A stretch of 24,163 bases of DNA from Nannocystales bacterium (GTDB lineage Bacteria; Myxococcota_A; Polyangia; Nannocystales; Nannocystaceae). Made by a program: the position numbers and the translations under genes. Shown here in pieces: positions 1-21,732 of this stretch (positions are counted from its first letter, which is position 1; each line of letters starts with the position of its first letter). The stretch is from contig JBOEGF010000009.1 of the NCBI GenBank assembly GCA_050633305.1, forward strand, positions 6,149 through 30,311. Reading direction: 5' to 3'. The notes under the pieces were generated by a model. It was not told where the DNA came from and searched no databases. It was given only the letters and a program-made list of their open reading frames with translations.

Positions 1-130
1 CCGCAGGTACCCCTCCGGGCGAAACAAACCACGAACAGCCTACCTTGTGGCGAATGTGCTGTTGTTGGTCCAAGGCGGCGCAACGCCGCCCATCAGGCTA
101 ACAAACTCTGTCCCCGCCCCCTTCTCGAAA
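1..130 (-). ncRNA. Putative retron msr-msd ncRNA, Mx162-like, truncated by the window edge
   Basis: The minus strand reads tAGCctgatg-GGCGGCG-TTG-CGCCGCC-ttggaccaacaacagcacattcgccaCAAGGTAGGCTGTTCgtgg. The perfect 7-bp hairpin is at 74-90, the candidate branching G at 98 and the CAAGGTAGGCTGTTC block at 33-47. The order and identity of these motifs match my recollection of the Myxococcus xanthus Mx162 msr/msd. It lies directly downstream of the HEAT/SWIM/WGR operon. The 5' boundary is approximate, and the a1 repeat and RT gene are not in the window. Confidence 0.75.
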
Positions 131-209: not shown

Positions 210-2021
210 TCACATCGATTCCGACGCACTCGCATCAACAAATCCCTTGTCGCCCAAGGTGTCCAAGCGTGAGAAGTACTCGGTCTTCGCGCCATCGGCA
301 TCGGTGAAGAACAGCTTCTGCACCCGCATGCGTTCGGGGTGTTCCCCCCACCGCACCACCACACGTCGGTCGTCTAACGAAAGCCGGTAGGTCATCACAC
401 CGCCGCGGCGACGACGGGTCATGATCCGCGTCTCTGCGACGATGAGTTTTCGTCCCTGCGGGGTGTTTCGTGCCGCTTCTAGCTCTGTTTGCGCCCGGGC
501 GTGCGCCAGCCGCAACGCGATCATCGGCACCGTCGGCCCTTCTCGTAGACCCGCTCTCCGGAATTGCGGACTGGTGCAATCCGCGTCGACGGTGCGGCCT
601 TCTCGGTCGAGTGTGAAGGACGTCTTGTAGGTCCTGTGGGCGACCGTATCGTTGACCTCGCCTTCGATGCGCGTGCCTTCCTGCGGCAGGTTGTGTACGC
701 GGGTGATGTTCACAGCCCCGTCTTGCGCCAGAAGCCGGTGGGCCTCGCGCTCGTTGTCGTCGCGGTACCGCAACTCCTCGGTCGACGGGGGATCTTCCAT
801 GAGCGCGCGTCGCACCAAGGCGCCGCTGGCCATGTCCTTCAGGAGCATGCCCCGTTGCATCTCGTGGAGTACCGCCCGGCGCACGTCGCCCACGGGTCGG
901 TCCACCGAGGTCGCCAACGCAGCCAACGTCTGGGGACCTTCGTCAAGAACCTCCATCACGCGCCGAGAGAGCACTTCATCCACCCCGGTCGCGGACAACA
1001 GGTCGAACGTAGCGATCCCCGCCCAGCCGCTGTCGGTCCACCCCGAAAGCGCAAGCGTGAGCGTGGCGTCGCCCAAGTCGATCACGTAGTACGCAGGCAA
1101 GCCCGCACCCACGAGGTGCACGGTGACCGACTTCGCGTGTGGCAACAGAGGCGCCAGAGCACCCAGGCGCCGACGCCCCCAGGTTCGAACGACGGTGGGA
1201 GCGGAACCGCCGTAGGCATCCCCCGTGGCTTCGAGCACGGTTTCCCACGGCTCGAGCACCAGCCGTGGACGCTCGCCGGGCACCAACTCGTAGCGAAGTG
1301 CCCGCGGAGAGGTCTTCGCGCGGTGCAGCCGTAGCGACAGCAGCAGGTTGTAGAGGTCGATAGGGTTGAGGGAGAAGGAGGTGCTGGGCAGCGTGGATGC
1401 GGCTTGCACCTGACCGAAGGCCCTCAGCCAGCGGTGCGGAACGTGGAAGTCTCGCGACTCCCCGCCGTGGGCAGGCCGCAACTCCAGCGATGTGCTCCGG
1501 TACGACCGCACCCGCCCCACCGCGCGCTGCAAGGGCTCCGCGGTGAGATCGAGGTGCGACGTGCCCGGCGTGGACTGCTTCACATCGAGCGAGGCACCGG
1601 CCTTGAGGTGCAACCGAGCGTAGGCGGACTCGTCAGCCGAGAACACCTCCAGCGACAGCCCGGTATCGTCCACGTGCACGATGGGATCGAGTGGCGCTTC
1701 GTCGTGCTCGCTCTCGCCAAACTTCTGCGCGAGGTACGCCTTTTGGGCGTTCCACACCTCTTGGCTTACCCGCTTCCCCTTGGACAGCAGGTACGCCAGG
1801 TAGTCCTCGCGACTGGTCGCCTTGCGACGCAGGTCCGAGGTGAGGATGTCGTGCATGGTTCGAAGCGCATCCCGAACAACGCCTGGGCGCTGCAACGCGG
1901 CCTGCAACGACGCGCCGGACCGAAGCCCGTCGGTGGACAGCGTGAGGGTGAAACGATCTCCGTCCGGCCGGGTTTCGGGCTGCGACTCGTAACGAACGGC
2001 GGTGGCGGTGCTCTGCGACAT
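210..2021 (-). CDS. SWIM-zinc-finger-family protein (degenerate ligands) with a winged-helix-like segment and C-terminal WGR-like domain; putative retron-associated protein
   Basis: 603-aa ORF from ATG 2021 (or 604 aa from GTG 2024), overlapping the upstream stop (GTGATG) with AGGA upstream. It has a family-like block LDPIVHVDDTGLSLEVFSADESAYARL, a SWIM-position segment DCTSPQFRRAGLREGPTVPMIALR, and a C-terminal YRLSLDDRRVVVRWG...FFTDADGAKTEYFSRLDTLGDKGF that fits the WGR pattern. Confidence 0.8.
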   Translation of the reverse strand: MSQSTATAVRYESQPETRPDGDRFTLTLSTDGLRSGASLQAALQRPGVVRDALRTMHDILTSDLRRKATSREDYLAYLLSKGKRVSQEVWNAQKAYLAQKFGESEHDEAPLDPIVHVDDTGLSLEVFSADESAYARLHLKAGASLDVKQSTPGTSHLDLTAEPLQRAVGRVRSYRSTSLELRPAHGGESRDFHVPHRWLRAFGQVQAASTLPSTSFSLNPIDLYNLLLSLRLHRAKTSPRALRYELVPGERPRLVLEPWETVLEATGDAYGGSAPTVVRTWGRRRLGALAPLLPHAKSVTVHLVGAGLPAYYVIDLGDATLTLALSGWTDSGWAGIATFDLLSATGVDEVLSRRVMEVLDEGPQTLAALATSVDRPVGDVRRAVLHEMQRGMLLKDMASGALVRRALMEDPPSTEELRYRDDNEREAHRLLAQDGAVNITRVHNLPQEGTRIEGEVNDTVAHRTYKTSFTLDREGRTVDADCTSPQFRRAGLREGPTVPMIALRLAHARAQTELEAARNTPQGRKLIVAETRIMTRRRRGGVMTYRLSLDDRRVVVRWGEHPERMRVQKLFFTDADGAKTEYFSRLDTLGDKGFVDASASESM

Positions 2022-5000
2022 CACGCGTGTTCCTGGCGTTGGGTGGTGGTGGTGCGACGTTGCGCGCGTCGCAGCGCTCGGAAGATGGCTTTGCGGAGCG
2101 ACTCATCAGCGCCATCGCTGTCGAGCAAGCCTTGCAACGTCGAAACGGATTCGTTCCCGCCCAGGCGCCCCAATGCCGCAATCGCGGTGAGCCTTGCCGT
2201 GCCATCGCCTTCGGTGGCGAGCGAACGCAGCGCATCCGTACGCGAGGACTGTAGGGCCCGCGGCAACAACGTCGGCCGCGACGCATCCGAGGAAAGCGCG
2301 GCCTCGGCGTTCTTGTCGAGTGCCGCATGAGCCAGCGCCGCTGCGACCCGGCCGTCGGTGACCTCCGAGGACAGGGCGACAGCGCCCGCTTGCCCAGGGT
2401 CCATGGAGGCGATCGCACGCGCAGCCGCAACGCGAACCCGCGAGTCGTGGTGCCGCAACAAGCCGCGTACCACGGGAAGCCCAGCCGTCTCGCCCGCGGC
2501 TTCCAGCAGCCGAATGGCTTCGGCCAACACCGCAGGCGGAGCTTTGTCGTGCCCCAAGACCTCCTGAGCCACTGCGCCATCGGCCTTGCCGCGCCGCACT
2601 GCCCATAGACACGCGCGCCATGCTTCGGCCTCGGCCTCCCGGTGCGCGGCATCGGTGCCCACGGTCAGCGCATCCCACCGGGCTGCGCTCTTCTTGGCCG
2701 CCGCCGCCGCAGCCCCGGCGAGGTCTGCCGACTCCGCCGCACCTGCAAGCCACGCCGCGTCGGCGCGAACACCGGGAGCATCGTGCCCGAGGAGTTCTGC
2801 GATGGCTGCAGCGGGCAGCGCCCCACGTCGGACCAAGCCGCGACGCAAGCGAGCTCGGACCGGTGCGCTCTCGATGTGAGGCAGGCGTTCCAACAGGGAC
2901 GACGGGTCACCGTTGCGGGCCAAGAACCCGGCCGCAGGCTCGGCGACGTCGTTGTGCGGACTACGAATGCGAGCCATGTTTACCCGGGTGGTGTCCTCGG
3001 GAAACACCAACGCCAGGGCCTTGGACGCCACCGACCGCAGTCCGCGGTCATCATCGGACAGGGCTTCGGCCAGGACCGCCTCCGAGGAGGTGTTGCCCAG
3101 CTCGCCCAGCAACGTCGCTGCGTGACGTCGGACGGTGGCGTCTTCGAACGCATCGGCCACCGCCGCTTCGAGCAGGCCTCGGCTTCGCTCGTCGCCCGCC
3201 CATCGCAGTCCCGTCAGTGCCCGCGTCCGAACCTGGCTCTCGCCCTCGGCCGCCGCGGTCTCCACTGTTTTCCGGATCCTCGCTTGGGTGTCCGCGTCAT
3301 CGAATCGACCGAGCATTCGGCCCAGCGCCTCGATGGCAACAGGCGCCAATGCCTGGTCCTCATCGGACAGCTCGGCATCGGGGTCGAGCAACGCCTCGAT
3401 GTCCGGCAAGCATCGCGGGTCGGCGAGATGACCCAAGGCCAACAGCGCCCGCTCGCGCTCGGGTTGCTCTCCCGCGCCAAGCACCAAGAGCAGCGGCTGC
3501 AGCGCTTCGGGGCGCTGACGCTTGGCCATCCCCGCGGCGGCAGGCAACACAAGGTCTCGACGACCCCGGCGCAGCGCAGCGCCCAACGCGTCGAGTCCAG
3601 CGCCGTCGACGGCCTCGGCTCGGAACGCCACCGCTTCGGCGGCTGCGACCCGAACCGTCTCGTCACGGTCGTCGAGCAGTCGCGCCAAGACAGCTTCGGC
3701 CTTGGCATCGTCGACGTCGCGGCACGCTGCGACCGCCTGGGCCCGCATCTGCGGGTCGGCGTGGTGCGCTGACGCGTCGATGTAGCGCAGCGCCCGCGCA
3801 TCGTCGAAGCGTCGGCGAGTCCGACCGTCGGGAAGGGTCCGGGAAGGCTCGCTGCGGTGACGCGCCAAGCTGAGCAAGGCATCGAACGCCCGTGTTCCGG
3901 TCCCCACGTCGTCGGCCCGGACCATCCGCAGCAGCGGCGCTTCGCCGTCCGGATGTCCGACCTGTGCGATCGCCTGCACCACAGACGGAACATCCGCGGT
4001 CTGGTCGGGGTCGTCTTCCAATCGCGAGGCCAAGATGCGCGCGACCGCACCGGCCGTCTCTTCGACCTCCCGTGCCCGCACCAGCGTCACCAAGCCGTCG
4101 AGTGCCCGACGGACCACCCGCGATTCGTCGTGCCGCAAGAACCCTGCCAGCACATCGCCGGCTCGTACGTCACCACGCTTGGCCAGCGCACTCGCGGCCC
4201 GCTCGCGTAGGTCCTCGTGGTCGCTCTCCAGAGCTCGAGCCAACGCTTCGTCGACTCGAGCGTCCTGGGCATCGACCAGACGGGTGACCACCGAGAGCCG
4301 GACGTCCGCGAAGCGGCTGCCCAGCGCAACCAGCCACGGCTCCAAGCTCCCCGCCTCGAACAGCTGCTGGATCTTCTGGACCCCGTGACTGCGTACGTCC
4401 TTGGCGGCGGCGTTGACAGAGTCGAGTGCCAGCACCCGGGCGGAGTCGTCACCGTGCAATGCGCGAGCGACCAGCGTATCGACGGCCCCACGCCCCACAT
4501 CGGCGTAGCTTGCCTGCAACGCGAGCGACGCGGGAGTGGTGTCTCCCTCGCTGTACAGGGAGGACAGGGTGGTGCTGGCCGCCTTGCGCACCAGGTGATT
4601 CGGGTCGGACAGGGCCCGGCGCACCGCGGGCAACACCGCTGCACGCCCCACGTGGGGCGACTGGGCCAACGCACCGAGCCGTGCCAGCGCGTCGCGTCGT
4701 ACCCGGTGCGTCTCGTCCGCCGCCCCTGCAACCGGAGCTTGTCGCACCAGACCCACATAGGTCCCAAACACCACCTGGTCCAGGTCTTCGGTGCCGGACG
4801 GCGACGAGGGCACCGTTCGCGGGTTGGGTCCGCCCGCGTAACGGATCACTTCGAGCACTCGGCGGCTGAGGTCTTCAGGGCGTTTGCCTGTCGTCAGCGT
4901 GGCTGTCAAACGGCGAATCCAGCTGCGCTTGCGAGACTGCGGTGCTTCGCGTTCGGGCGCGGTCGCGGGCGCATCCGAGACGCCGCTGGGTTTGGGCCCC

Positions 5001-8000
5001 TGCAAGCGCTTGGCCTCCCGCCAGAACGCCTCGGGCTGCGGCCGCAGCGACAACACCCGCGCGGCCGCGTAACGCGTGGCCGGCTCATCGCTGGCCAGCA
5101 CCGAGATTAGGATCCCAAGCATTGCCCGGCGCTCGGCCTCGGGTGGCCACTTGGCGAGTTCAGACGCCCGGTCGGGCTTGCGTGGGCCGACCAACTCTTC
5201 GAGCAACGGACCGAGCGCACCGGGATCTTCGCTGCGCACCTCCAACACCCGGGCCGCCGCGAAGCGCAACTCGGGGCTGGAGGCTGCCAATGCAGCGGCG
5301 AGCAGGTCGGGTGCCAAGCCGGAGCGGGCCAGCGCCACATCACGCGCCACCACGATCGAGAACACCAGGTCCTGAATCTCGCGGTCGGTGTCTTCGAGTC
5401 CCTGCAGCACTCCGCGGAGGCCCTCGTGGCCCAGCGCAACGAAGCTGAGGATCGCGCCGAGACGGATCGGCTTGTGGTCGTGGGCCAAGGTCCCGGCGAG
5501 AACCGGTACAGCGCGCACATCCCCAAGCCGGGCCAAGCCTTCGGCCACCCAGCTGCGGACCGGTAGGTCGTCGTGGGAAAGCGCGGCCACCAGGGGGCGC
5601 TCGAGCCCGGGCTTGACCGCTCCCGCCAACCCGCGGCCACCCATCTCCCGCACGTGCCCGTCACCATCGTCGAGCAGCGTCACGTAGGCCGCCATCGAGG
5701 CAGCGTCGGCGACATCGGCCATCGCTGCAGACGCTCGGCGACGAATGTCGTCCGACGGCCGATTGATATCCCCGCTGGGCAACGCCAAGAGGGCAGCCAT
5801 CGGTGCGACCGCGTCCGTAATGCGGCGCTTTCCGTGCAGCTCGGCCGCACGAACCCGTAGCGTCCAGAATTTGCTGCTGTACGCGGTGGCGAACGCGTTT
5901 TGGTCCTTGGGGAACAAGGCATCGAGCGCTTCGATCGCGGCCTCGTGGACGGGCACCGACAGATCGTCGAGCAAGTCGGTGAGGTGTACGCGTAGCGCCT
6001 CGAGTCCCTCGCCCTTTGCATTTTTTGCGCCGCGACAGCCCGCAGCTCGTACCGCAGCGCGAGGCGATTGCGTCGCGGCGAGGTGCACCTGTGCTCGGGC
6101 TTTCCCCGCCTTCTTCCGGGCCTTGTTCTTCTTGCTGTCGGTCAGCGCCGCGTAGGCTGCCAGCCCCACAGACTCGTTGCCGTCGCCAACCATGGTCAGC
6201 AGCAGCGAAGTCGCCCAGTCGCCATCGGTGCGATCGAGCTCGGCGACCACCTGCTGGCGGGTGTCCGCATGTCGGGACGCCGAGGCACGCTCCAACATCG
6301 GCTGGGGCGTGTCGCTGTGCCATGCCCACAACGTCTTGTAAGCCGTGGCGCGCACCTTGCCGCTCTCATCATCGAGCGCGGCCGACAGCAACCCGTCCGC
6401 CGTGGCGTGGTTGGCGGGGGCAGCCTTGGGCCCATGTCCGACGATGATCGCCAGCGCCTTGGCGCGCATGTCGTCCTGACCGCTCTGCATCGCGACGGCA
6501 GCGACCTCGAGCGCGCCCACATCCCCACGGGGTTGCGCCAGCGCGGCAAGGGCATCGAATGCATCGGTGCGCACGCCAGGGTCGGAGTCGTCGAGCAGCC
6601 ACTGCAGCCGGGTGCGGATGCGGTCGTCGGCCGGCATCGCCTCACCTGCGAGATGCAGGGTGTCCACCACAGCACGCCGCAAGCCATGGTCAGCTTCGCG
6701 GCTGAGCTGCAACAGCGCCCCGGTTGCCCGCGGGTCCTGCAGCAGCGCCAGCCCACGGGCGCCCCGCAACGCAGTGTCGGGGTGGCGGCAGTTGAGCGCT
6801 GCAAACAACGATGCCCGGTCATCTTCGTTGGGCGTGCTGTCCTTGGCGGCCGCCAGGAGTAGTGGCCCCTGTTTGTGCGCGAGGTCGATGGCTGCGCGGA
6901 ACTCCCCATCGAGGCGGTACAAGGTGCGGCCGAGCACCACCCGTGCCGATGCGGCCACGATGAACGCCATCTGGCGGACGCGGGAGTCATCATCATCCAG
7001 AGCGGCCTCGACCAATGCCGCGCCCTCGGGGGTCTCGGACGCCCGCGTACGACCCAACCAGAACAGCCCGGACGCGCGAACGTCTTGGGGGCCCCGTGCC
7101 AACGCAACCCGAGCCGGCTCGACCGAACCTTTCGGTTCCAAGGCCACCAAGGCCTCGAACGCGGCGTGCCGCACCTTGGACTCTCGGTCACTCAAGCGTT
7201 CGGCAACCAAGCCGGGCACCAACGCGGACTGCTTGCGAAGCGGCGGAAGGGCGCCCAGCGCCCGAACCCGGAGGTCGGTATGTGAGCCGCTGACGGCCGC
7301 GCGCAGAGTGGAGATCGGATCGTCCTTGTCGATCCGCAGCAGCAAACCTTCGAAGGCCGTGCCGCGGACCTTCTTGTCGTCATCACCCAGGGCGCTGCGC
7401 AGAGCGGCACGAACCCGTCGATTGCCCGACCGCCCCAGCACGTCGGCGGCGAGGAGCCTCACCTCTGGCTTGTTGTCGCGTTCCAGTGCGCGCTCGATGA
7501 GCAACCGTGCGTCATCCTCGGGATGCTCTGCCAGGGCTTTGATCGCAGCGATACGAACCTTGGTGCCCGAGGCACCGAGCTGTTCGGTTCGCTCGGCCAG
7601 CTCCCCGTGCACCCGCTCGGTCTCGTCTGCGATGGTGCCTTGCTCATCGAGCGTGAGCGCAACCAAGGAACGCTTGGCATCGATGGCGACCAGCGAACCG
7701 CCGCGCTTGTCCTGCTTGGCGCGGGCGCTCGAGGGCAGCCACACCAGCCCCGTGAGCGCAGCGCTCCCAAGCTCGACCGTCTTGGGCTTGCGCCGGGTCT
7801 CCAGCGGCCACGACTTGACCACCCCGTCAGCACCCGCAGAGAACAAACGCCGAGGAATATCCCGACCGGCCTCGTCTCGCAGCACCGGGCCGAGCACCAG
7901 GCTCACCACCGCCCGCTCGTGGGCGGCATCTTTGGAGCGGTCCTCTTCATCAGCCGCACCGTCGAGGTAGCTGATCCGCAGCGAGCCGTCGCCGCACCCC

Positions 8001-8626
8001 GCCACCACCCGACCGTCGTCGGTCACGACCAGGGCCCGGACACCACCTTCGCCCGTGGGCATCTCCCGCACCGGTGCATTCTCCAGGTCGTCTAACTCGA
8101 CCACTCGCACGACGCCATCGTCCCCGCCGGTCACCACGCGGGCGCGCACGGGGTCGAAGCCCACGGTGCGGAGAGGCCGGGGGCTGAGCCCACGCTGACC
8201 GATCCGATCGAGTCGCGGCTTTCCATCCTGGACCACCAACCGATAGGCGCCCACCCGGCCGCTCTCGGTGACCACCGCCAGCGACGTCCCTGCGGCGTCG
8301 CTGGCCATCCCCAGCACACCACCACTGGGACCGTCGTGGGACCCCAACGCAGCGGGCTCGGCCGCTTCCGCATCCACCAACCGTAGGGACCCATCGGTCC
8401 CGCCCACGACCAGCAGGTCGTTGGAAAGAAACACCATCGCCCCAACGGCCGTCGGGATGGAAAGCGATGCAGCATGGCTGCGTTTGCCCGTGGCGAACAG
8501 ATGAATCGACGAGCTTTCCACGTCGGCATCCCGCGCACCTGCGATGGCAAACCGACGAGCCGAGCCCGCGACGGCGCGGAGCTGCTCGAGGAACGGGGCG
8601 AACTTTTTCTTCGCGTTGCTGCTCAC
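2021..8626 (-). CDS. Giant N-terminal WD40 beta-propeller + HEAT/PBS-lyase repeat protein (2201 aa)
   Basis: 6.6-kb ORF with a GTG start, GGAGG RBS and GTGA overlap with the upstream gene. The first ~340 aa have WD40-like blades (VGGTDGSLRLVD, TGGDDGVVRVVE, AGCGDGSLRISY, SAGADGVVKSW). The rest has many HEAT-like units (ALGDDDKKVRGTAFEGL, LSDRESKVRHAAFEAL, LLDDRDETVRVAAAEAV). Confidence 0.92.
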   Translation of the reverse strand: MSSNAKKKFAPFLEQLRAVAGSARRFAIAGARDADVESSSIHLFATGKRSHAASLSIPTAVGAMVFLSNDLLVVGGTDGSLRLVDAEAAEPAALGSHDGPSGGVLGMASDAAGTSLAVVTESGRVGAYRLVVQDGKPRLDRIGQRGLSPRPLRTVGFDPVRARVVTGGDDGVVRVVELDDLENAPVREMPTGEGGVRALVVTDDGRVVAGCGDGSLRISYLDGAADEEDRSKDAAHERAVVSLVLGPVLRDEAGRDIPRRLFSAGADGVVKSWPLETRRKPKTVELGSAALTGLVWLPSSARAKQDKRGGSLVAIDAKRSLVALTLDEQGTIADETERVHGELAERTEQLGASGTKVRIAAIKALAEHPEDDARLLIERALERDNKPEVRLLAADVLGRSGNRRVRAALRSALGDDDKKVRGTAFEGLLLRIDKDDPISTLRAAVSGSHTDLRVRALGALPPLRKQSALVPGLVAERLSDRESKVRHAAFEALVALEPKGSVEPARVALARGPQDVRASGLFWLGRTRASETPEGAALVEAALDDDDSRVRQMAFIVAASARVVLGRTLYRLDGEFRAAIDLAHKQGPLLLAAAKDSTPNEDDRASLFAALNCRHPDTALRGARGLALLQDPRATGALLQLSREADHGLRRAVVDTLHLAGEAMPADDRIRTRLQWLLDDSDPGVRTDAFDALAALAQPRGDVGALEVAAVAMQSGQDDMRAKALAIIVGHGPKAAPANHATADGLLSAALDDESGKVRATAYKTLWAWHSDTPQPMLERASASRHADTRQQVVAELDRTDGDWATSLLLTMVGDGNESVGLAAYAALTDSKKNKARKKAGKARAQVHLAATQSPRAAVRAAGCRGAKNAKGEGLEALRVHLTDLLDDLSVPVHEAAIEALDALFPKDQNAFATAYSSKFWTLRVRAAELHGKRRITDAVAPMAALLALPSGDINRPSDDIRRRASAAMADVADAASMAAYVTLLDDGDGHVREMGGRGLAGAVKPGLERPLVAALSHDDLPVRSWVAEGLARLGDVRAVPVLAGTLAHDHKPIRLGAILSFVALGHEGLRGVLQGLEDTDREIQDLVFSIVVARDVALARSGLAPDLLAAALAASSPELRFAAARVLEVRSEDPGALGPLLEELVGPRKPDRASELAKWPPEAERRAMLGILISVLASDEPATRYAAARVLSLRPQPEAFWREAKRLQGPKPSGVSDAPATAPEREAPQSRKRSWIRRLTATLTTGKRPEDLSRRVLEVIRYAGGPNPRTVPSSPSGTEDLDQVVFGTYVGLVRQAPVAGAADETHRVRRDALARLGALAQSPHVGRAAVLPAVRRALSDPNHLVRKAASTTLSSLYSEGDTTPASLALQASYADVGRGAVDTLVARALHGDDSARVLALDSVNAAAKDVRSHGVQKIQQLFEAGSLEPWLVALGSRFADVRLSVVTRLVDAQDARVDEALARALESDHEDLRERAASALAKRGDVRAGDVLAGFLRHDESRVVRRALDGLVTLVRAREVEETAGAVARILASRLEDDPDQTADVPSVVQAIAQVGHPDGEAPLLRMVRADDVGTGTRAFDALLSLARHRSEPSRTLPDGRTRRRFDDARALRYIDASAHHADPQMRAQAVAACRDVDDAKAEAVLARLLDDRDETVRVAAAEAVAFRAEAVDGAGLDALGAALRRGRRDLVLPAAAGMAKRQRPEALQPLLLVLGAGEQPERERALLALGHLADPRCLPDIEALLDPDAELSDEDQALAPVAIEALGRMLGRFDDADTQARIRKTVETAAAEGESQVRTRALTGLRWAGDERSRGLLEAAVADAFEDATVRRHAATLLGELGNTSSEAVLAEALSDDDRGLRSVASKALALVFPEDTTRVNMARIRSPHNDVAEPAAGFLARNGDPSSLLERLPHIESAPVRARLRRGLVRRGALPAAAIAELLGHDAPGVRADAAWLAGAAESADLAGAAAAAAKKSAARWDALTVGTDAAHREAEAEAWRACLWAVRRGKADGAVAQEVLGHDKAPPAVLAEAIRLLEAAGETAGLPVVRGLLRHHDSRVRVAAARAIASMDPGQAGAVALSSEVTDGRVAAALAHAALDKNAEAALSSDASRPTLLPRALQSSRTDALRSLATEGDGTARLTAIAALGRLGGNESVSTLQGLLDSDGADESLRKAIFRALRRAQRRTTTTQRQEHA

Positions 8627-11409
8627 GCGCGACCTCCCTCGACCGACTGTGCAAACCGTCTACGACGCGGCTCCCGGACCTCGATGCTCTGGCTGGCCAA
8701 CGCGACGCCCAGCTGCGGATGCGCCGCACGTAGGGCCACCAGCGCAGACAGGCACGCATCCCGTTCTCCGCGCGCGCTCGAATGAGCGAACGCCTCCAAG
8801 ATGGGCAGCACCGCTGCGGCAAAGCCCGCGTCTTCGAGTGCGAAGTCCCGCAAGACGCCCACGAGGCGTTGCTTGGCCACCGAGGCGGGCAACGAACGAT
8901 CAGGCGCGACACCGTTGGTGGGCGCTCGCCTCTCCATCCGACCCGGTGGAAGCCCGAACAACACCGTGCGCAAGAACTCGCGCAACGCTTCCGAGGTGTC
9001 GAACGCCTGCTGGGCCGTGGGCGCGGCTGTCCGTGTGGCAACGGGGCTCAGCCCGCGCGGCCGATGCTTCTCCCACAGCAGACGCACCGCGAACAACCGG
9101 ACCTCCCGGTCGGGGCTCTCCATCAGCCACGCCAAGCGGTCGGCACCCCCGAGCCGGTCGTAGTGGCGGCGCACCAACGTGAGCGCAACCTCGCGGGTGG
9201 ACTTGTAAGGGCTCTCAGCCAGCGAGAAGACGGCGTCGACCGAAAGCCAGGCGACGGGCAGCATGCGCTCGGGCGGAAGCTCATCGTCGCCAAGCAACAG
9301 CAGCCCCGACCCGGCAGCGTTACGGGTCTCGGAGAATGGTGACTCGGCCAACCGATACAGCAGCGTTGCGTCGTCCCAACGGCGGATCTCGGCATCGATC
9401 AACTCGGCCGCAAACCGCCGCACATCGGGTCGGGGGTCGTCGGTCAGCGGAACCACGGTGGCCTGCGCGTAGTCGGCGGGGATCAGCCGTGGCTCGATGC
9501 CCAGGTCGCGCGCTTCGGATTGCGTCGGGCCAATGTCGGGGTGATGCAGACGCAGGTACGTGGCCGCGAACTCCCGCACCGCCTCGGGTTGGGCCTCGCC
9601 CAACAGTGCCCAGCAGCCCCCGCCGCCGAGTTGGTCGGGCGTGAAGTGCTCCAACAGGTGGCGTCGCGCAAAGGTTCGCAGCGCGGCATCGGCGTGGCGC
9701 AGCAGTCCCAACAGCCACGGGACGCCCAGCTTGGCGGGGCCCACCCACGTGGGCTCGCCCAGCACCGCCAGCGCGGTGGAGCGCAGCTTGGGCTTGGCGA
9801 TGAGCCCTTGGAACCAGGCCACATCAACGTCGTCGCCCTTGAGCTTTCCACGCGACAGCCACGTGGAGACTTCGCTCGTGAACTTGCGATCGAGCAGCGT
9901 GTCTTGGATCCAGCCCACCCCGATCTCGGACGCCTTGCGCTCGCCGATCCGGGACAATACCCGGCGCTCGCGATAGTTCAGCCGGGTGGAGTTCGATGCC
10001 AAGCGGTCGTCGACGAGCAACGCCTGCAAGTGAGACACCGGCGGCTTGCGCTTGGCCTCGGAGAACCATCCGTCGACAAAGCGCTCGCCGTCACGACCCT
10101 CCACCATCAGGGTGACAAACTCCGCCTCCCCGAGTGCATCGACCGTGAATCCGTCACGGATCGCCTTGCTCGCCATCTGCGCGGTGGCCCGCGCCAACAC
10201 CAAACGCACCAACATCGGCAACCCGATGTCTTTGGGGGATATCTTTTCCAGCCGCTCGAGGGCGAACTTTGCTCCGTCGCTGTGGCCCAGCTCGGCCAGC
10301 TGCACCAAGCGCTCTACCGGGACCTGCGCCGACTGCCCGCGGACATACTCGAGCGCCAGGGTGCGTGCCGTTGAACTGGGGCTGCCGAGGAACGCCAGCA
10401 TCAGCGGTTCGAGGCCCAAGCCCGCCAGCTTCGACGGATGGAACTTGGGATTGGCCTGCAGCAGTCGAGCGACGAAGTCGTGCACCGACGGCAGCGACTT
10501 CTTCCCCAAACGCAGCAGCCACGCGGGCTCGACATCACGCAGTGCGTCCGCAAAGGCCTTCTCCAAACCGGTGATGGCAAATGCGCATACCTCGTCGGCC
10601 TCGGCGTGCTCCAACAGCCGCAGCAACGGCTCCTTGCGGGCTTTCCAGGCGTCGGGAAATGCCCAGTCCTTCATTTTTTCGGAGGGACCCGACGAACCAC
10701 TGGTGCCCCACATCATCTCGTGGGACCAGATGTGCGAAGCCACCCAGGTCCCCCAGAAGTTGGTGCCCGGCTCGTAGTGGCGCAGCACCTCCACCGCAAA
10801 CTCGGGATAAGCCTCGGGCACCGCGGTTCCCAGCTGACGGAGAAACCGCCACGCACGACGCCGCATGTAGATCAGCGTGCCGCGCCCGACCTCACCGCTG
10901 GCCATCTTGGATTGAGCAAAGGTGTCCAGCCTCCACGCGAGCAGCCCCAACATCGGCGCATCATGCTGCGCCTCGGCCAGCTTGAAGATACGCTTGAACC
11001 CCCGCCAGAACCCCCAGCCGATCCTCGCACGCCGCAGTATGTCCCTTAGGGACGCAAGCCCCGGTTCGTCCCCCGCCTCGTACAGCTCGACCATCAGCTG
11101 GCCCAGCTTCAACCGCGGCGGAGGATGAGCGGCCGCCTCGAGGGCCGACCATGCGGCGTTGCGGGCAGCTTGCTGCTCCTCAGCGGACTTGTGAGCCAAC
11201 TGGCCGGGATTCACCGCCTGGCGCAGCCGCCGAAGCGTCCACGCACCGTCGGGCAAAGCCACCACGGTCTCTGCGGGGTCGGCTTCTTCCCCGCGATCTT
11301 CAGGGGGGTCGCCTGAATCCATGTAGCGGACCACCAGGTCTGCCAGCTGTGGGTCGCGCGCTTTCGCGGCCGCGACAATGTCTGCCCAAACAACCTCCCG
11401 AACGCGCAC
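8623..11409 (-). CDS. HEAT/ARM-like alpha-solenoid protein (928 aa), first gene of the operon
   Basis: Long ORF whose stop overlaps the next start. It has HEAT-like units (TDDPRPDVRRFAAELI, MESPDREVRLFAVRLL, AESPYKSTREVALTLV) and an aromatic/basic N-terminal block (WRGFKRIFKLAE, YMRRRAWRFLRQLG). GTG 11409 is the first in-frame start after a stop. Confidence 0.88.
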   Translation of the reverse strand: MRVREVVWADIVAAAKARDPQLADLVVRYMDSGDPPEDRGEEADPAETVVALPDGAWTLRRLRQAVNPGQLAHKSAEEQQAARNAAWSALEAAAHPPPRLKLGQLMVELYEAGDEPGLASLRDILRRARIGWGFWRGFKRIFKLAEAQHDAPMLGLLAWRLDTFAQSKMASGEVGRGTLIYMRRRAWRFLRQLGTAVPEAYPEFAVEVLRHYEPGTNFWGTWVASHIWSHEMMWGTSGSSGPSEKMKDWAFPDAWKARKEPLLRLLEHAEADEVCAFAITGLEKAFADALRDVEPAWLLRLGKKSLPSVHDFVARLLQANPKFHPSKLAGLGLEPLMLAFLGSPSSTARTLALEYVRGQSAQVPVERLVQLAELGHSDGAKFALERLEKISPKDIGLPMLVRLVLARATAQMASKAIRDGFTVDALGEAEFVTLMVEGRDGERFVDGWFSEAKRKPPVSHLQALLVDDRLASNSTRLNYRERRVLSRIGERKASEIGVGWIQDTLLDRKFTSEVSTWLSRGKLKGDDVDVAWFQGLIAKPKLRSTALAVLGEPTWVGPAKLGVPWLLGLLRHADAALRTFARRHLLEHFTPDQLGGGGCWALLGEAQPEAVREFAATYLRLHHPDIGPTQSEARDLGIEPRLIPADYAQATVVPLTDDPRPDVRRFAAELIDAEIRRWDDATLLYRLAESPFSETRNAAGSGLLLLGDDELPPERMLPVAWLSVDAVFSLAESPYKSTREVALTLVRRHYDRLGGADRLAWLMESPDREVRLFAVRLLWEKHRPRGLSPVATRTAAPTAQQAFDTSEALREFLRTVLFGLPPGRMERRAPTNGVAPDRSLPASVAKQRLVGVLRDFALEDAGFAAAVLPILEAFAHSSARGERDACLSALVALRAAHPQLGVALASQSIEVREPRRRRFAQSVEGGRA

Positions 11410-11443: not shown

Positions 11444-11999
11444 CGATGCATCTGGCCTCAAACCCCGACGCCCGCTTACACCATTTGCCCTATTCACCTC
11501 GCACGCGGACCGGGGCACTTCCTGAGGTATTGCCGGTTCGATCGATCGCGCCTACCAAGTCGCCTTCCGCTCCCACGCTTCACAGATCTCGCCCGCGCAA
11601 CCAACGCGTCCAAGTCTGTACATCACCGAGGCCGATCCTTGAACCACCGAGAAGCCTCCTGCCCACGAGCCGATCTTGTTCACAGCGGGCGCGGTGCTCA
11701 GCGGAGCCAGGCTGCGCTCGGCAGAGTCCCCCCTCTAGAGGCCGGTTTCCGGCTCTACCAGACTCGTCTCCATCTCGTTCGAGATTTGAGCGTCAGAAGC
11801 CGAAGGTTCGGCGGAGAAGACTCGATGTCAAAGGGCGAAGGCCCGCCGTCGAGCGCCCGAGATCCACGTACGACCACGCGGCCGATCGATAGAGTTTGCG
11901 TCTTCGTAGACCGACCGATTCGTTCTCTCGCATTGACGGACACCGGGCCATGGCCAGTTGCTCATGGCTCGACGGCGCACGCACAGATCGAGAACCGGC

Positions 12000-13085
12000 A
12001 TGAAACACCATCGAACCAAATCCCATCCTGCTCGCCGCATCAGCTCGGTGCTCCTGTTTGCGCTTGCCGCGCCCGCGATTGGAATCGGCCCGCTTGCGTG
12101 CGACGACGGCCAGGACCCGCACGACATGCAGATGCGCTCTTTGGATCCGGTGATGGAGCGAGTGCCTGTGTCCGACCCCGACCTCGATCCGATCGATGCC
12201 AGCGAGCTGGTGGGACTGACGATTGAAGACCTGCACGCGATGTCGTTCAATTACGACACCTACGTCATGAGCGAGCGGCCGACGTCCATCACGTATACCG
12301 CCCCTCAGATCGCGAGCGTGCGAAATGGAGGCTGGCCCCTCCACGCTCTGCAATGGAAGGACTATCTCACCAGCACTCCTCAGACGAGCACCTTCGACAT
12401 TCCCGCAGCCACCGCAGCCATCTCGGCCAGCCAGGACTTCCACAGCGTCGAAGTCGACAGTGCGCCGGCGCTCAATGCTCTCGAGGCGGGTGTTGCCTTC
12501 ACGGGCCCGGACCCGGCAGGTGATTGGATGTACATCAACATCTCGAGCCCCGCGGTGGCGTTCGCCTATGCCGCCCTCGTCATGCATCACTGGGGTAGCC
12601 CGGTCTATGTCGCTGGGTGGCTTCAGCACCCCGCGGGCAGCCCGAACCGGGTCTCCAGGATTGCCTTGCAGGAGCTCACGTTCCAGCTCCCGCCGAGCGT
12701 CGTGGATCTCTTCGATTCGTGCGGCTTGCTGTCTACCGATCCCCCGAGCGTTGCCCTCGCTGCCCCACCCATCTGCGCCAATGCCATGGTGCTTCACCAC
12801 GACGAGGTCACGACCTGGCAGGAGAGTCAGTGGGGGACGGGGGCTTACACGCCTTTTCTCCCGAACTACTTCCTCGACCCCGTGGTGCTCGCTTCCGCGA
12901 TGACCACGGTCGGTCCGGTGTTGCAAGGCAACGTGGTCTTCGATCCGCCCGACGAAGTGACGGAGGAAGAGCTCGAAGGCGTCCTGGTGTTGGCCGAGGC
13001 GCTCTCCGAACAGCTTCTCATCGAAGGCGAGGATGGCAGGTTGGTGCTCTTGAAGGAACTGGCCTTCGAATCCATGGAAGGCTGA
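12000..13085 (+). CDS. Hypothetical lipoprotein (361 aa)
   Basis: From ATG 12000: basic N-terminus, hydrophobic stretch and lipobox-like PLAC (MKHHRTKSHPARRISSVLLFALAAPAIGIGPLAC). The composition is globular and acidic, with no recognisable domain. Confidence 0.75.
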   Translation: MKHHRTKSHPARRISSVLLFALAAPAIGIGPLACDDGQDPHDMQMRSLDPVMERVPVSDPDLDPIDASELVGLTIEDLHAMSFNYDTYVMSERPTSITYTAPQIASVRNGGWPLHALQWKDYLTSTPQTSTFDIPAATAAISASQDFHSVEVDSAPALNALEAGVAFTGPDPAGDWMYINISSPAVAFAYAALVMHHWGSPVYVAGWLQHPAGSPNRVSRIALQELTFQLPPSVVDLFDSCGLLSTDPPSVALAAPPICANAMVLHHDEVTTWQESQWGTGAYTPFLPNYFLDPVVLASAMTTVGPVLQGNVVFDPPDEVTEEELEGVLVLAEALSEQLLIEGEDGRLVLLKELAFESMEG

Positions 13086-15544: not shown

Positions 15545-17047
15545 TCAGAACACGTGAACTTCGCGACCGGGCAAGACGAGCATCTCGCCGGACTCGGGGT
15601 CCAGGAGCGTGGCCTGAGTCTCGTCGCTGAAGAACGCACACGTACCCGCGGCGTTCACACCGAGGCCGTAGGTTCCGTCCGGGAGCGACGCATAGTCTCC
15701 CCCGTCGTAGGAGACCTGCAGTTGCTGGCCCATCGCCGTCCCCGCGGCGGGTTCGAAGAGCTGGGGCGGGCAGAAACTCTGCCCCTCCGGGACCGTCTGC
15801 ACAACGGTCACAAGGCCGACCGTGTGAACATCCATCATGTCGATGCCTGCGACTGGGCTTCCGACGACGGTCCATGTTCCGCGATCGACGTCGAGCCGCT
15901 GTGGCTGGGCTGCCGCGGCGTCGCGAAGCGCCATCACGACCGCGCCATCCGCCTCGATTGCGGGGACGCGTCCGTAGCACTCCATTGCCTCGAAACCGGG
16001 GGGAGGTGTGATCTCAATTGTTTCCGCGGCCTGCTCGGCGAGGGACACGCGAACCCAGACAGAGTCCTCAGGCTGCTCGGCCTGGGCCTCGAGGAGAATC
16101 CAGTCCGGGCTGGCCGAAACCCACGTCAGCGCGTTGGGCCCAGGGTTGAACGCCGCAACGTCGACTGCGGTCGTCGTGCCATCGGGATCCGCCAATACGA
16201 TCTGACCGTCGGCTTGGTAGACGAGTCGCCCTTGGTAGAGGAGCGTTCGGGACCCCAAAGGACTGGGGCTGATCTGTGCCACGGCGCCGGTGGATAGGGT
16301 GGTCCAGGCCAGCGGGTTCGGGGACGACTCCGTTGGGAGCCGACCGGGAATCACATCGGAGGGCACACTCCCGTGCCGTGGCCGGAACCCAGGGTACACG
16401 GCGGGAGGCTCTCCGGGGATCAGGTAGAGCCCCTCGTAGCCCGTATCGGTCGTCTGTCGGTAGCCCAACAAGTCACCCTGCGGGCCCACCCCGGTGAGCT
16501 CGAATGTCGCGCTCGTCAGCGACTCTTCGTGCGCCACCAAGCCCTCGATGTCGAACGTGCGGAGCGTGTAGCCGCTGTCGACGGACCCGCCATTGAAGTG
16601 GCTCCAATCGGAAACGACTGCCGCCCAGGACCCGTCCGTGGAGCCGCGGGCCTGCCTGCCGAGGTTGGATTCCGCGGGTGCCCCGACGGCGGGTGCTTCG
16701 ATGGCGACCAGGGATCCATCTCCGCGAATGAGGTGGCTGTCTACACCATCGAAGACCATTGCGACAAAGGCGTCGGCGCTGCGGCCACAAAGGCCTGCAG
16801 GCTCCGGCTCCGTCGTGTCGGACGTTCCGCCTTCGCTGTCACCGTCGCCCGTCGTCTCGGTCCCCGTGGCGTCGCTGACCATCCCTGTGGTTTGCGGTCC
16901 CGATGTGCCGGGCGCGCTGGTCTCAGTCAATGACACGTCTGCCCCCTCTGCTTCGCCCTGCGCGGTTGTCCCGGCTTCGGCGTCGAGACCGACGGCTGGA
17001 CCGCAGGCAACCAGGAGGAGCGGAAAGCCGTACGGAGTCCAGCGCAT
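15545..17047 (-). CDS. Hypothetical lipoprotein with Thr/Gly/Ser linker and beta-rich domain (500 aa)
   Basis: MRWTPYGFPLLLVAC lipobox, a low-complexity T/G/S/E/D linker, then a beta-strand-rich, possibly propeller-like region with a few Cys residues. Confidence 0.8.
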   Translation of the reverse strand: MRWTPYGFPLLLVACGPAVGLDAEAGTTAQGEAEGADVSLTETSAPGTSGPQTTGMVSDATGTETTGDGDSEGGTSDTTEPEPAGLCGRSADAFVAMVFDGVDSHLIRGDGSLVAIEAPAVGAPAESNLGRQARGSTDGSWAAVVSDWSHFNGGSVDSGYTLRTFDIEGLVAHEESLTSATFELTGVGPQGDLLGYRQTTDTGYEGLYLIPGEPPAVYPGFRPRHGSVPSDVIPGRLPTESSPNPLAWTTLSTGAVAQISPSPLGSRTLLYQGRLVYQADGQIVLADPDGTTTAVDVAAFNPGPNALTWVSASPDWILLEAQAEQPEDSVWVRVSLAEQAAETIEITPPPGFEAMECYGRVPAIEADGAVVMALRDAAAAQPQRLDVDRGTWTVVGSPVAGIDMMDVHTVGLVTVVQTVPEGQSFCPPQLFEPAAGTAMGQQLQVSYDGGDYASLPDGTYGLGVNAAGTCAFFSDETQATLLDPESGEMLVLPGREVHVF

Positions 17048-17660: not shown

Positions 17661-17955
17661 AGGGGCTCGAGGCACTGCTGGGTTGTCGCCATACTCGACC
17701 CTGCGTCCGCCTTTCTCCGGCTCCCCCAAACAGTGACAACGCCGAGAGAAAAGCGCGGTCCTCGTCCACGATCTTTGATCCACGGCCGCGCGTTTCCAAC
17801 CGCGTTTGGGGCGGGTGATGGTCAGCCGGTCGACCGCTTGCCAGACACGGCCCTCCCCGTCCGATGAGGGCCGTGTCTTGTGGGTGATGACCGCGCGACG
17901 GATTCAGGGCACTTGGACCACTCTAGCCACCAGCCGCGGACGGTATGCTCCCCGC

Positions 17956-18495
17956 ATGGGACATCGTGTCGGGCCGGTGACGGAGCGACTCATCCTCCGC
18001 GCAATGACGCCGGGCGATGCTGAGGCCTTCTTCCGCCTCAACAGCCACCCCGAGGTGATGCGCTACACGGGTGAGCCACCAATGCCCAGCGTGCAGGAGG
18101 CACGCGAGGCGATCGCGAACTATCCGGACTGGGATGATCCCGGCTACGGGCGCTGGGCTTGTGTGTTGAAGTCCGAGGGCGAGGACGCGGAGCTGATCGG
18201 GTTCTGCGGCCTGAAACGTCTGCGCGAGACGGGCGAGGTCGACATCGGGTACCGGCTCCTTCCAGAGTACTGGGGGCGCGGCTTGGCGACCGAGGCGGCT
18301 CGGGCGACGTTGGCATTCGGCTTCGGGACGCTCGGGTTGAGCGAGATCGTGGCCATGGTCTTGCCCGGGAACGAGCCCTCGATTCGTGTGTTGACCAAGC
18401 TCGGCTTGGTCCGGGCCGAGGACATCGAGTATTGCGGCGAGCGCGTGCAGCGGTGGGTCATCACCGCCGACCAGCAGGAACCCCTGCTGAGCTGA
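17956..18495 (+). CDS. GNAT family N-acetyltransferase, RimJ/RimL-like (179 aa)
   Basis: Characteristic motifs TERLILR, LIGFCGL, VDIGYRLLPEYWGRGLATEAA and NEPSIRVLTKLG. ATG 17956 has TATGCT 6 nt upstream. Confidence 0.93.
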   Translation: MGHRVGPVTERLILRAMTPGDAEAFFRLNSHPEVMRYTGEPPMPSVQEAREAIANYPDWDDPGYGRWACVLKSEGEDAELIGFCGLKRLRETGEVDIGYRLLPEYWGRGLATEAARATLAFGFGTLGLSEIVAMVLPGNEPSIRVLTKLGLVRAEDIEYCGERVQRWVITADQQEPLLS

Positions 18496-19057: not shown

Positions 19058-21295
19058 CTACCAACGCGCAGCCACCGACGTCGTGAACGGAACCGCCTTC
19101 GGCTTGCCCTTCACCTTCGTCGAGACGACGATGTCGAGCATGCGATAGCGGGTATGCTCGTGCGAGTTCTGCGAGGCAAGGGTAAGCACGACGCGTGCAC
19201 CCTTGATGGTCTCCTCGTTGTCCTTCTTCTCTTTGACCTGCTCGAATGTGATCTTCGCTGCATCGCCATTGATGAGTGCCTCCTTGACGCCCTCGATCGC
19301 TCCGCTGAGCTCAAGCACCGCGGTGACTTTGTCCTTGTGCAGGTAGGCTTGAACTTTCGTCACGCCACTGGGAGGGGACTTCTTTGCGGGTACGCGGTTG
19401 ACGAGCTTGACTGGGTGCCATTCGACGTCGTTGGGCCAGGTGTTCCCGCACGGAGCTTCGCCTGACTCCGCGAGGCTGACGTACAGAAGTTTGTCGGTGG
19501 CCGCCGTCGACAGAGACACCATTCTCGATTGCTGTCCTTTCTTTCTGGCGTCGAAGTGGACGTTCTGTCCGCCGGTTGCATCGCGGACACACAGCCAACC
19601 GTTGTTCGAACCGAGCGTCGTCGCCTGGACCCGGATGAGATTCGCGCTGATGCGGCTGATCTCCTGCACTTCGATCCTCGGCGGCCTTGGATATGAGGCC
19701 ATGATCTCTCGTTGAGGAAAATGAGTCGAGGCGGCTCGACGGCGCTGCCGAAGGTTGCGTGTGGACGAGCGCTCGTACGTGGGGAGAAAACGCGTTTCGA
19801 CGTCGACGTCGATGAGCTGCTCGATCGTCGGAGACGAGGCGGGGCCGATCGCAGATCGGGTGGCAACGCCGAGGTCGGCAGGCGCCCTTGTCGTCGGCTC
19901 TTTCTTCGCTTCGTCTTCTTCCGCCTCGGTCTTCGCGAGCACCAGCAGTTCTCCGACGAAGTTAGAGTCCAGCAGGCGTCTCTGGTATCCGCGGCCGTTC
20001 CTACGAGGGAGGCTCTCCTTGCCGTTGTAAGTGATACGCACGGATGCCGGGCCCGTAACCTCGGCATGGAACTCGGGGTTGCGGGCCACCGCAGAGAACC
20101 GCCGCAGCTTCTCCCGCGTTCCGCCTGCCTCGGCGAGAAGGAGAAGTGATTGGATGGGGAGGGCTCCCCCGACTGCGCCTGACAACTGGCTGAGCTTGGT
20201 CGAACTGTCGGAGATGAACGAGGAGAACCCGCCCGGGGCGATGGCGACGACACGCAGGTCGTCGTTGGCAAACGTCGATCTGTAGGTCTCGAGTCCTCTC
20301 TTGGACACGGGACTCCTCTCGGAGCAGCCGGTCACGAGCGGATCGATTGGTCCGCCGCGGTCGTAAAACGCGTCGATGTCGTCCAGGAGCGTGAGGGCGT
20401 CGTTCTGCTTCCCGGGCAACTGGTCGTCGCCGGAGGTGCGATCGTACGCCTCCTGCTCACAGTACTGGAGTGCCTGGTATGCCGCGAAACACTCATCTAC
20501 ACAGGTCTTCGTGTTCAGCAAGCGGATCGTGGCCGCGGCGGTGTAGTCGAACTGCGTCGTAGCCCCTGGGGTGAAGGCGACGGTGAAAGGGACGGAGAGA
20601 AGGCGGTATCCAGCCGGGACGGCGCCCACGTTGTAGAGCTGCATGAGCGCCCGACCTCCGAGGATCGCGTCGGCGGTTGCGTACAGCACTTCATGAAACG
20701 GTGCTGTCAATCCTTCGGAGGGCAGCGGAGTCGCGGTCAACCCCGTTCCAGGCACGGTCGCGCTCCCGACGAGAGAACTTTCCGAGTTGGCGGTCTGCCC
20801 GGAGGTCGACCCCGCGTTTTCACTCGAGGCTACGATCTCGGAGGAGTCCGCGGTCGACCCGGGCTGTCCATTCTCGTCGACACCAACCGAGACATCGTAG
20901 GACTGACTCGTATTGGAGTTGGACCCTTGCGTGGCGCCCGATGTGGACTCGACCGAACTCGACGTGGGCGTCAGCGACTGGATCGTCACCTTTCCCGTGC
21001 CCGAACGTTTGACCGTGAATCCACGGTCGGCGTTTCGGCTGGACTTGATCTCGTTGTAGACGGTCTGGGCGTTGAGCAAAGGGCTGAGGTTGAGCCGCGT
21101 GGACTTCTCCGAGATCTCCCGCGCTACGCCGAAGTGCACGTTGATCTGCCCGCGTTCGTCCTCCATCCGGGGACACGACAACACGTGCTTTCCGCACCAT
21201 TGTCGTGGTCGAAGGGGCTTGGACTTCGTTGCGCAGCCTCCAAGCGCAAGCAAGCCGAGGGCGAGGAGCAGAGGAGGGTTGATCAATGGACGCAT
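19058..21295 (-). CDS. Large hypothetical lipoprotein (745 aa)
   Basis: Probable start at ATG 21295 (MRPLINPPLLLALGLLALGGC, lipobox LGGC). It has a Ser/Thr-rich segment, a small Cys-rich insert and a Lys-rich beta-like C-terminus, with no recognisable catalytic motif. Confidence 0.75.
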   Translation of the reverse strand: MRPLINPPLLLALGLLALGGCATKSKPLRPRQWCGKHVLSCPRMEDERGQINVHFGVAREISEKSTRLNLSPLLNAQTVYNEIKSSRNADRGFTVKRSGTGKVTIQSLTPTSSSVESTSGATQGSNSNTSQSYDVSVGVDENGQPGSTADSSEIVASSENAGSTSGQTANSESSLVGSATVPGTGLTATPLPSEGLTAPFHEVLYATADAILGGRALMQLYNVGAVPAGYRLLSVPFTVAFTPGATTQFDYTAAATIRLLNTKTCVDECFAAYQALQYCEQEAYDRTSGDDQLPGKQNDALTLLDDIDAFYDRGGPIDPLVTGCSERSPVSKRGLETYRSTFANDDLRVVAIAPGGFSSFISDSSTKLSQLSGAVGGALPIQSLLLLAEAGGTREKLRRFSAVARNPEFHAEVTGPASVRITYNGKESLPRRNGRGYQRRLLDSNFVGELLVLAKTEAEEDEAKKEPTTRAPADLGVATRSAIGPASSPTIEQLIDVDVETRFLPTYERSSTRNLRQRRRAASTHFPQREIMASYPRPPRIEVQEISRISANLIRVQATTLGSNNGWLCVRDATGGQNVHFDARKKGQQSRMVSLSTAATDKLLYVSLAESGEAPCGNTWPNDVEWHPVKLVNRVPAKKSPPSGVTKVQAYLHKDKVTAVLELSGAIEGVKEALINGDAAKITFEQVKEKKDNEETIKGARVVLTLASQNSHEHTRYRMLDIVVSTKVKGKPKAVPFTTSVAARW

Positions 21296-21441
21296 CGGAC
21301 TTCTCGTTTGCTTCTTTCGTGCGCACATCGGGTGCGCGCGACTCGTAGTGCGTCTCGACGTCCGTTCCGTCACTTCGACCGTCGGTTTCTTGGGTAGCAG
21401 GCGGCCGGAGGGCCGCGATACCGACCCGCGACAACCACCAC

Positions 21442-21504
21442 TTTTCTTCGTTTCGATGTGATCCGTTGGTGCCTTTTTCTTCGTTTCGATGTGATCCGTT
21501 GGTG
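21442..21504. repeat. Tandem duplication: two identical 30-bp units with 33-bp period
   Basis: TTTTCTTCGTTTCGATGTGATCCGTTGGTG at 21442-21471 and 21475-21504. Confidence 0.92.
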
Positions 21505-21732
21505 TCTTCCCGGACTCTCGAGAAGCATGCAACAACGACGAAAAACCGTCCTGTAGCTCGGTGGCTTCGGTTCTTCGCTGCTTCTGTACGGCCTCGAAGA
21601 CGACGACGTGGTGTTTAGTCCCGACGCGTACGTGTCCGACGAGGGTTTCGAACTCACCGCCGCTCGACTCACTACGCGTTTCGACCGCGCGCGGTTCGAT
21701 CACCTCTGCGAGCAAAGTCGGCCGCGAGGGCG

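Follow-up and report, generated by a model that had tools for sequence, protein, structure and literature searches.

The closest described relatives of the locus reported here are the type XIII retrons, whose reverse transcriptases (RTs) form clade 10 and which include Retron-Mxa1 (Mx162), Sau1 (Sa163), Mxa2 (Mx65) and Nex2 (Ne144) (Mestre et al. 2020, PMC7736814). Type XIII was the third most common retron group in one survey, with 143 of 1,286 candidates, and covariance models XIII-A, B, C and Mx65 exist (PMC13712802). In the published range a retron has one to three msr hairpins, TAGC is the most frequent context of the branching G, CAGC is the form given for Mx162 and Sa163, and Retron-Nex1 (Ne160) of Nannocystis exedens is described as duplicated msr-msd repeats (PMC6868368). 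Clade 10 RTs rank among the best producers of RT-DNA in E. coli (PMC10849725). No phage protection by a type XIII retron is reported in the portions of the literature covered, and the term XIII is absent from the available main-text portions of PMC12548924 and bioRxiv 2024.07.21.604473.

The window analysed here is a stretch of 24,163 nucleotides (G000:C9:6149-30311) from a Nannocystaceae-like myxobacterium; positions with the prefix C9 follow contig numbering, and all others count from the first base of the window. The host genome holds 45 MYXO-CTERM matches, and its RpoB is 89% identical to that of Paraliomyxa and 70-72% to those of Kofleriaceae, Sandaracinus and Byssovorax. At the left edge, sequence and pairing mark positions 1-126 of the minus strand as almost certainly the 5′ half of a retron msr-msd RNA, with both pairing partners to the left of the window edge, and very probably as part of a working retron of type XIII (the Mx162 family, to which the first retron ever discovered belongs). 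The RNA is laid out as follows.

99-126, minus strand: 5′ closing repeat; 104-126 pairs with C9:6048-6070, and 99-103 adds G-U pairs and one U-U mismatch
98, minus strand: predicted branching G (2′-OH primer) in TAGC; GTTAGC is invariant in 13 of 13 rows of alignment A1
91-97, minus strand: 7-nt spacer of a compact msr; most relatives have a small extra hairpin here
74-90, minus strand: single msr hairpin of 7-8 bp with a 3-nt loop; in 12 relatives every cell is paired (100%) and 2 of 8 pairs show two-sided changes
51-73, minus strand: A/C-rich linker, poorly conserved in A1; by analogy, the predicted end of the msr and of the reverse transcript (RNA-DNA overlap)
1-50, minus strand: 5′ arm of the msd hairpin, with a conserved base (33-50) and a variable stem (1-30); inverted match at C9:6090-6133, 30 of 35 stem pairs with two-sided changes in relatives
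C9:6090-6133, minus strand: 3′ msd arm, outside the window past a 15-N gap
C9:6048-6076, minus strand: 3′ closing repeat, outside the window, ending at the G that faces G98

The first-pass annotation had placed on the minus strand a branch G at 98, a 7-bp hairpin at 74-90 separated from it by 7 nt, and a conserved element at 33-47, and had read these as Mx162-like. Inspection finds each of them there: the TAGC with its G at 98, the 7-bp stem closed by a 3-nt loop, the 7 nt that separate this stem from G98, and the 15-mer at 33-47. Seeds of 7-bp hairpins are common enough (22 in the window, 0.9 per kb) that the motifs carry little weight by themselves, and the evidence lies in their combination and in the pairing partners. 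The annotation had predicted both partners, one for an msd arm and one for the repeat that it called a2 (99-126; a1 in PMC7736814), and had proposed a search of the left flank for the reverse complements, with their absence counting against a retron. Both are present just past an assembly gap of 15 Ns (C9:6134-6148). The inverted counterpart of window 1-48 is at C9:6090-6133 (83%, E 4.7e-5), with perfect pairing over the 22 bp adjoining the gap, and 104-126 pairs over 23 nt with C9:6048-6070 (83%). By inspection the closing pairing extends via G-U pairs to G98, opposite the G at C9:6076, with a single U-U mismatch two pairs from G98 that is common to L004 and L116. The parts expected of a retron are all found: complementary 5′ and 3′ ends of 8-30 nt (here 23 nt at 83%, covarying in relatives), a priming G in (T)AGC at the inner end of the closing stem (G98), one to three short msr hairpins (one, 74-90), a long msd hairpin (arms 1-48 and C9:6090-6133) and an adjacent RT with NAxxH, YADD and VTG in its translation. 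A search of Rfam matched no retron family; its one hit, a viral stem-loop scoring 24 bits where 63 are required, is a chance match caused by the long hairpin. No promoter was found in a scan for the sigma-70 consensus only.

The 15-N gap lies over the msd tip, and the tip sequence of the present copy is unseen; the equivalent distance is 44 nt in L004 and in one RNA contig. Among the 32 N runs of the genome this is the only one flanked by a long inverted repeat. The contigs of L108, L117, L151, L201, L211 and L219 also end inside the hairpin. Because the assembly breaks exactly in the msd tip here and the contigs of relatives end there too, such RNAs are likely under-recovered in short-read assemblies. 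Models built from relatives, one of them in effect sequence-only, find exactly one such RNA in this genome.

Relatives support the predicted structure. The same RNA lies directly upstream of the RT in 12 of 28 related loci, and in these 12 relatives 97.9% of cells are paired and 36 of 68 pairs show two-sided changes. None of 500 shuffles scored as high, and slid controls pair at 41-49%, a comparison in which the structure is favoured because it was derived from the same alignment. The RNA of the closest relative, L004, folds with a z of -11, and the R2 model, built here from relatives, scores CAGC-type loci at 41-59 bits. Together with the pairing partners and the adjoining RT_XIII gene, this covariation bears out the assignment to the Mx162 family that had been made from the motifs.

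The idea that RTs with no adjacent ncRNA have none at all was ruled out, as all five such genomes tested hold the RNA elsewhere, in two cases ahead of a HEAT gene. Two layouts are seen. In one the ncRNA lies between the SWIM gene and the RT; in the other the RT stands directly behind SWIM, and the ncRNA precedes the HEAT genes or lies at a separate site in the genome, also in Planctomycetota (e.g. L193 in G292, L197 in G407, L194 and L195). In several relatives a locus holds two to four complete msr-msd copies, either in tandem 300-410 bp apart or flanking the RT, with mostly different stem sequences and the same base and tip (L113 at 398-1090, L114, L087, L147; G425:C235:8072-10405, G428:C50, G414:C24, G427:C222 and G435:C1). 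One RT could make several msDNAs in such multi-copy relatives.

Two viral contigs matched the pattern and neither fitted the RNA profile, and 85 of 120 metagenome stretches had no RNA profile match. Three marine RNA runs yielded contigs that match window 1-108/110, with 0, 0 and 2 differences; these come from relatives and may be DNA, and we take them to indicate presence only (4 of 24 runs were used; coverage is absent at 121-570 in the RNA runs and at 1-240 in the DNA run).

The RNA is embedded in a same-strand run of genes in the order HEAT/ARM - HEAT/ARM - SWIM - ncRNA - RT - WGR, of which the three upstream of the RNA overlap successively by 4 nt.

8623-11409, minus strand: HEAT/ARM partner, 928 aa, first gene of the run; PADLOC HEAT-ARM_XIII E 3.2e-238
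2021-8626, minus strand: HEAT/ARM partner, 2201 aa, with an N-terminal beta-propeller; PADLOC HEAT-ARM_XIII E 0, Pfam HEAT_2 and WD40
210-2024, minus strand: SWIM_XIII partner, 604 aa; PADLOC E 4.8e-140
C9:4703-6019, minus strand: retron RT, 438 aa, with NAQVH, YADD and VTG; PADLOC RT_XIII E 8.3e-149, best of 54 models, and RVT_1
C9:4260-4706, minus strand: WGR gene, 148 aa, overlapping the RT stop by 4 nt; Pfam E 2.1e-17

All five ORFs are open and full length, and 28 nt separate the closing repeat from the start of the RT ORF (C9:6019). The RT scores 494.6 bits against RT_XIII (next PADLOC model, 309.3), i.e. it is a clade 10 enzyme, and N203, A204, H207, Y311-D314 and G362 are invariant in 30 homologs. 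The linked SWIM gene is cluster-114-like, with 4-505 of 509 SWIM_XIII model positions aligned, and both upstream HEAT/ARM genes match HEAT-ARM_XIII. In 27 of 28 related loci the SWIM gene stands immediately before the RT or its ncRNA. Pfam, PADLOC and NCBIfam recognised no effector domain, enzymatic or toxic, in any of the partners. The genome holds only one match to this RT; two other RVT_1 genes, L066 (G000:C36:106332-107027) and L068 (G000:C24:165062-165505), have no such RNA nearby.

Elsewhere in the window, an ORF of 885 aa at 19058-21715 (minus strand) has a lower GC of 0.62 and no Pfam, PADLOC or NCBIfam match, and its true start is probably about 140 codons in, near a lipoprotein-like signal. 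Three probable secreted proteins or lipoproteins with no family match are encoded at 11958-13085 (plus), 15545-17047 (minus) and 23084-23914 (plus), and a GNAT acetyltransferase at 17806-18495 (plus).

The locus thus shares with type XIII an RT_XIII with a long N-terminus, a cluster-114-like SWIM gene, two HEAT/ARM genes and the canonical msr-msd anatomy. It differs in having one msr hairpin where most relatives have two, a degenerate SWIM zinc motif, and the extra 148-aa WGR gene after the RT, which is absent from the rows of Table 1 of PMC7736814 that were covered; compared by description, it also has TAGC where Mx162 and Sa163 have CAGC. With the zinc motif failing, one msr hairpin missing and a WGR gene added, we regard it as a variant and not a canonical type XIII member, i.e. 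a minor variant of a known system whose class is ordinary. No paper describing these three departures was found. The nearest counterpart is the retron of Paraliomyxa miuraensis SMH-27-4 (L006), which has an RT 68% identical, the same gene order, msd base and msd length, and the same degenerate SWIM and WGR gene, but retains the small extra msr hairpin, with a 20-nt spacer rather than the 7 nt seen here. No study of the SMH-27-4 retron was found in the literature. Ne160 comes from the same host group and is likewise compared by description; its duplicated repeats resemble the tandem copies in relatives, whereas this genome has a single copy beside the RT.

Absence of the small hairpin is not peculiar to this genome. 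The first-pass annotation had proposed a compact msr variant, and the comparison upholds this: 38 of 53 distinct RNAs from genomes and metagenomes have 15-21 nt between the G and the main hairpin, folding into a small 3-4-bp hairpin, and the other 15 have 6-7 nt there with no fold, as here. (The spacer script counts one nt more than that annotation did; one row, anchored wrongly at 29, is in fact long-form, and the pattern missed L127 and L115.) Loci with CAGC and a 21-nt spacer (L036, L081, L087, L149 and L175) are the nearest stand-ins for Mx162, and the occurrence of this longest spacer among CAGC loci fits the longer Mx162 spacer to which the annotation had pointed. Near-copies of one lineage make up 7 of the 15 compact RNAs, and compact RNAs adjoin full-length RT matches in L004, L010, L011, L012 and L014. 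In the RT tree, which has 25 of 56 rows (20 with a scored RNA form and 5 outgroups) and a midpoint root only, the present locus and L004 are sister to three long-form loci (97/91), and the compact group of Kofleriaceae is separate. A single compact clade is rejected (p-AU 0.0015), forcing at least two changes. From these sequences the first small msr hairpin appears to have been lost (or gained) at least twice; the outer branches carry long forms, so repeated loss is the simpler reading, and the missing hairpin would seem to be dispensable. More compact RNAs occur in L084, L117, L127, L138, L151, L170, L184, L187, L105, L116 and L203 (metagenomes, G449); their closing repeats are mostly unlike the present one, and they probably reflect more independent losses. 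No paper on a compact type XIII msr was found, and the supplementary RNA alignments of PMC7736814 and the myxobacterial papers of the 1990s may show it.

The msd, by comparison, is nearly constant in size. In 47 of 53 RNAs, 149-152 nt lie between the conserved base and the G opposite the branch point, the other six being five that are cut off and the gapped copy described here. All 67 RNAs compared have an msd core of 104-109 nt and a tip motif 41-43 nt away from the base. Column conservation averages 0.80 around the tip, where the search pattern itself fixes some positions, against 0.52 in the stem. The fixed length and the conserved tip, base and pairing indicate that these are under selection, and the stem sequence much less so.

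In the SWIM partner the zinc motif CxCx12CxH has lost three of its four ligands, only C483 being kept. Over 58 loci the motif is degenerate in 15 (one of four ligands kept), intact in 31 and unreadable in 12. The replacements (S, T and P, within residues 483-500) are themselves conserved across 14 myxobacterial loci with 52-82% identity, and a metal-free fold thus seems to be under selection. The small WGR gene is present in 15 of the 58 loci, namely 14 of the 15 with a degenerate SWIM and one with an intact SWIM, many loci having only 1.5 kb of flank; the degenerate loci are kin, so this co-occurrence is one event and not a correlation. In the motif Dx7[D]x4Ex30-32Dx37E, D113 and E126 are invariant, D159 is present here and unconserved, and the last E is unaligned.

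An AlphaFold (AF2) model of the SWIM partner (pLDDT 82.9, 23 sequences) predicts that its N-terminal half has the two-domain fold of PCNA and DNA sliding clamps. Residues 36-333 match PCNA-like clamps (Foldseek E 5e-7; Z 15.5, rmsd 2.8, 213 aligned), a likeness of fold that alone shows no function. The protein is unlike PCNA in its sequence (8-16% identity) and in being fused to a winged helix (346-414 in the model), the SWIM remnant and a C-terminal domain at 531-604 (Z 12.2, rmsd 1.7, 74 aligned) that on our own reading of the match is WGR-type. A trimer prediction for the clamp domain scored 0.00, which speaks neither for nor against. No transposase or RNase H fold appears among the best 50 matches of the structure comparison or the Foldseek matches listed, which does not exclude one, and no paper on a clamp-fold partner of a retron was found among the matches listed.

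The sequence allows the RNA a fold in which the two ends pair as far as G98 and enclose one msr hairpin and a long msd hairpin, and by analogy with other retrons it is highly likely that this RT and RNA produce msDNA. Following established retron chemistry (PMC6868368, PMC7736814), the RT would bind the 74-90 hairpin via its region Y, for which this hairpin is likely the recognition element by analogy with Ec86 and Ec73 (PMC6868368). Synthesis would be primed from the 2′-OH of G98 through a 2′-5′ linkage, copy from about C9:6077 through the msd and stop in the 51-73 linker, RNase H would remove the template, and the resulting branched msDNA would be 151 nt long or more. With an end roughly a dozen nt inside the linker, as in Mx162, it would presumably measure ~160-165 nt. 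More tentatively, the msDNA may act as a shape rather than a message, i.e. a duplex rod whose length is fixed and whose tip and base are conserved; the RT and its partners (clamp fold, winged helix and WGR domains on HEAT scaffolds) might hold this rod, and the held rod might be a decoy that reports tampering by foreign DNA-handling proteins.

Other readings of the RNA itself fare poorly. Solitary Ne160 copies have been described in N. exedens (PMC6868368) and relatives can carry extra ones, and the hairpin might by the same token be a solitary msDNA-like repeat, or an unrelated palindrome, that is not the template of this RT; yet it is a single copy with both closing repeats complete, just upstream of the genome's sole match to this RT, and such an origin is extremely improbable. 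A retron on its way out, with the compact msr as a decaying copy, could account for three departures in one locus (absence of the first hairpin, a mismatch close to the branch G, and missing zinc ligands). We consider this very unlikely, as all five ORFs are intact, the 22-bp stem is fully paired and differs from that of L004 by a two-sided change, the compact form recurs in separate lineages, and the residues that replace the zinc ligands are held in common by those 14 loci.

A different alternative accepts the same RNA and msDNA and places them in a domesticated, vertically kept complex that binds DNA structure in a housekeeping or developmental role and not in phage defence. The GC of the operon (0.63-0.70) is near that of the genome (0.66), of five genomes compared, the two with the most similar RpoB (96% and 89%) also have the most similar RT (85% and 68%), type XIII correlates moderately with 16S (PMC7736814), and the partners resemble scaffolds and nucleic-acid binders with no recognisable toxin. 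Presence is patchy, however, the RNA model matching one of 6 further members of the genus and 12 of 35 family genomes (limited to 73 scored candidates per genome, with several genomes incomplete), and the subfamily is also found in Planctomycetota, which implies transfer; we hold domestication to be somewhat unlikely. The patchy presence, together with what is seen for other retron types, fits a defence role, and for a working retron of this type the case for phage sensing is evenly balanced.

The value of the locus lies in detail, type XIII being already catalogued and common. The compact msr is a natural minimal primer that tells which part of the RNA the RT can spare, and since clade 10 enzymes are good producers of ssDNA it matters for retron engineering. 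A fixed msd length and a conserved tip beside a clamp-fold partner also offer a concrete test of what Mx162-family retrons do. In a speculative model, which we think unlikely, type XIII msDNA would be a molecular ruler: its duplex rod would have a fixed length, an unconstrained sequence and a conserved tip, and the PCNA-like domain of the SWIM protein would hold it in the way that a clamp holds DNA; the present lineage would have remodelled this system by losing the first msr hairpin more than once, replacing the zinc finger and gaining a WGR protein, and some relatives would feed one RT two to four rods. If true, the ruler model would be the first mechanism for the Mx162 family and would show a clamp repurposed for a retron.
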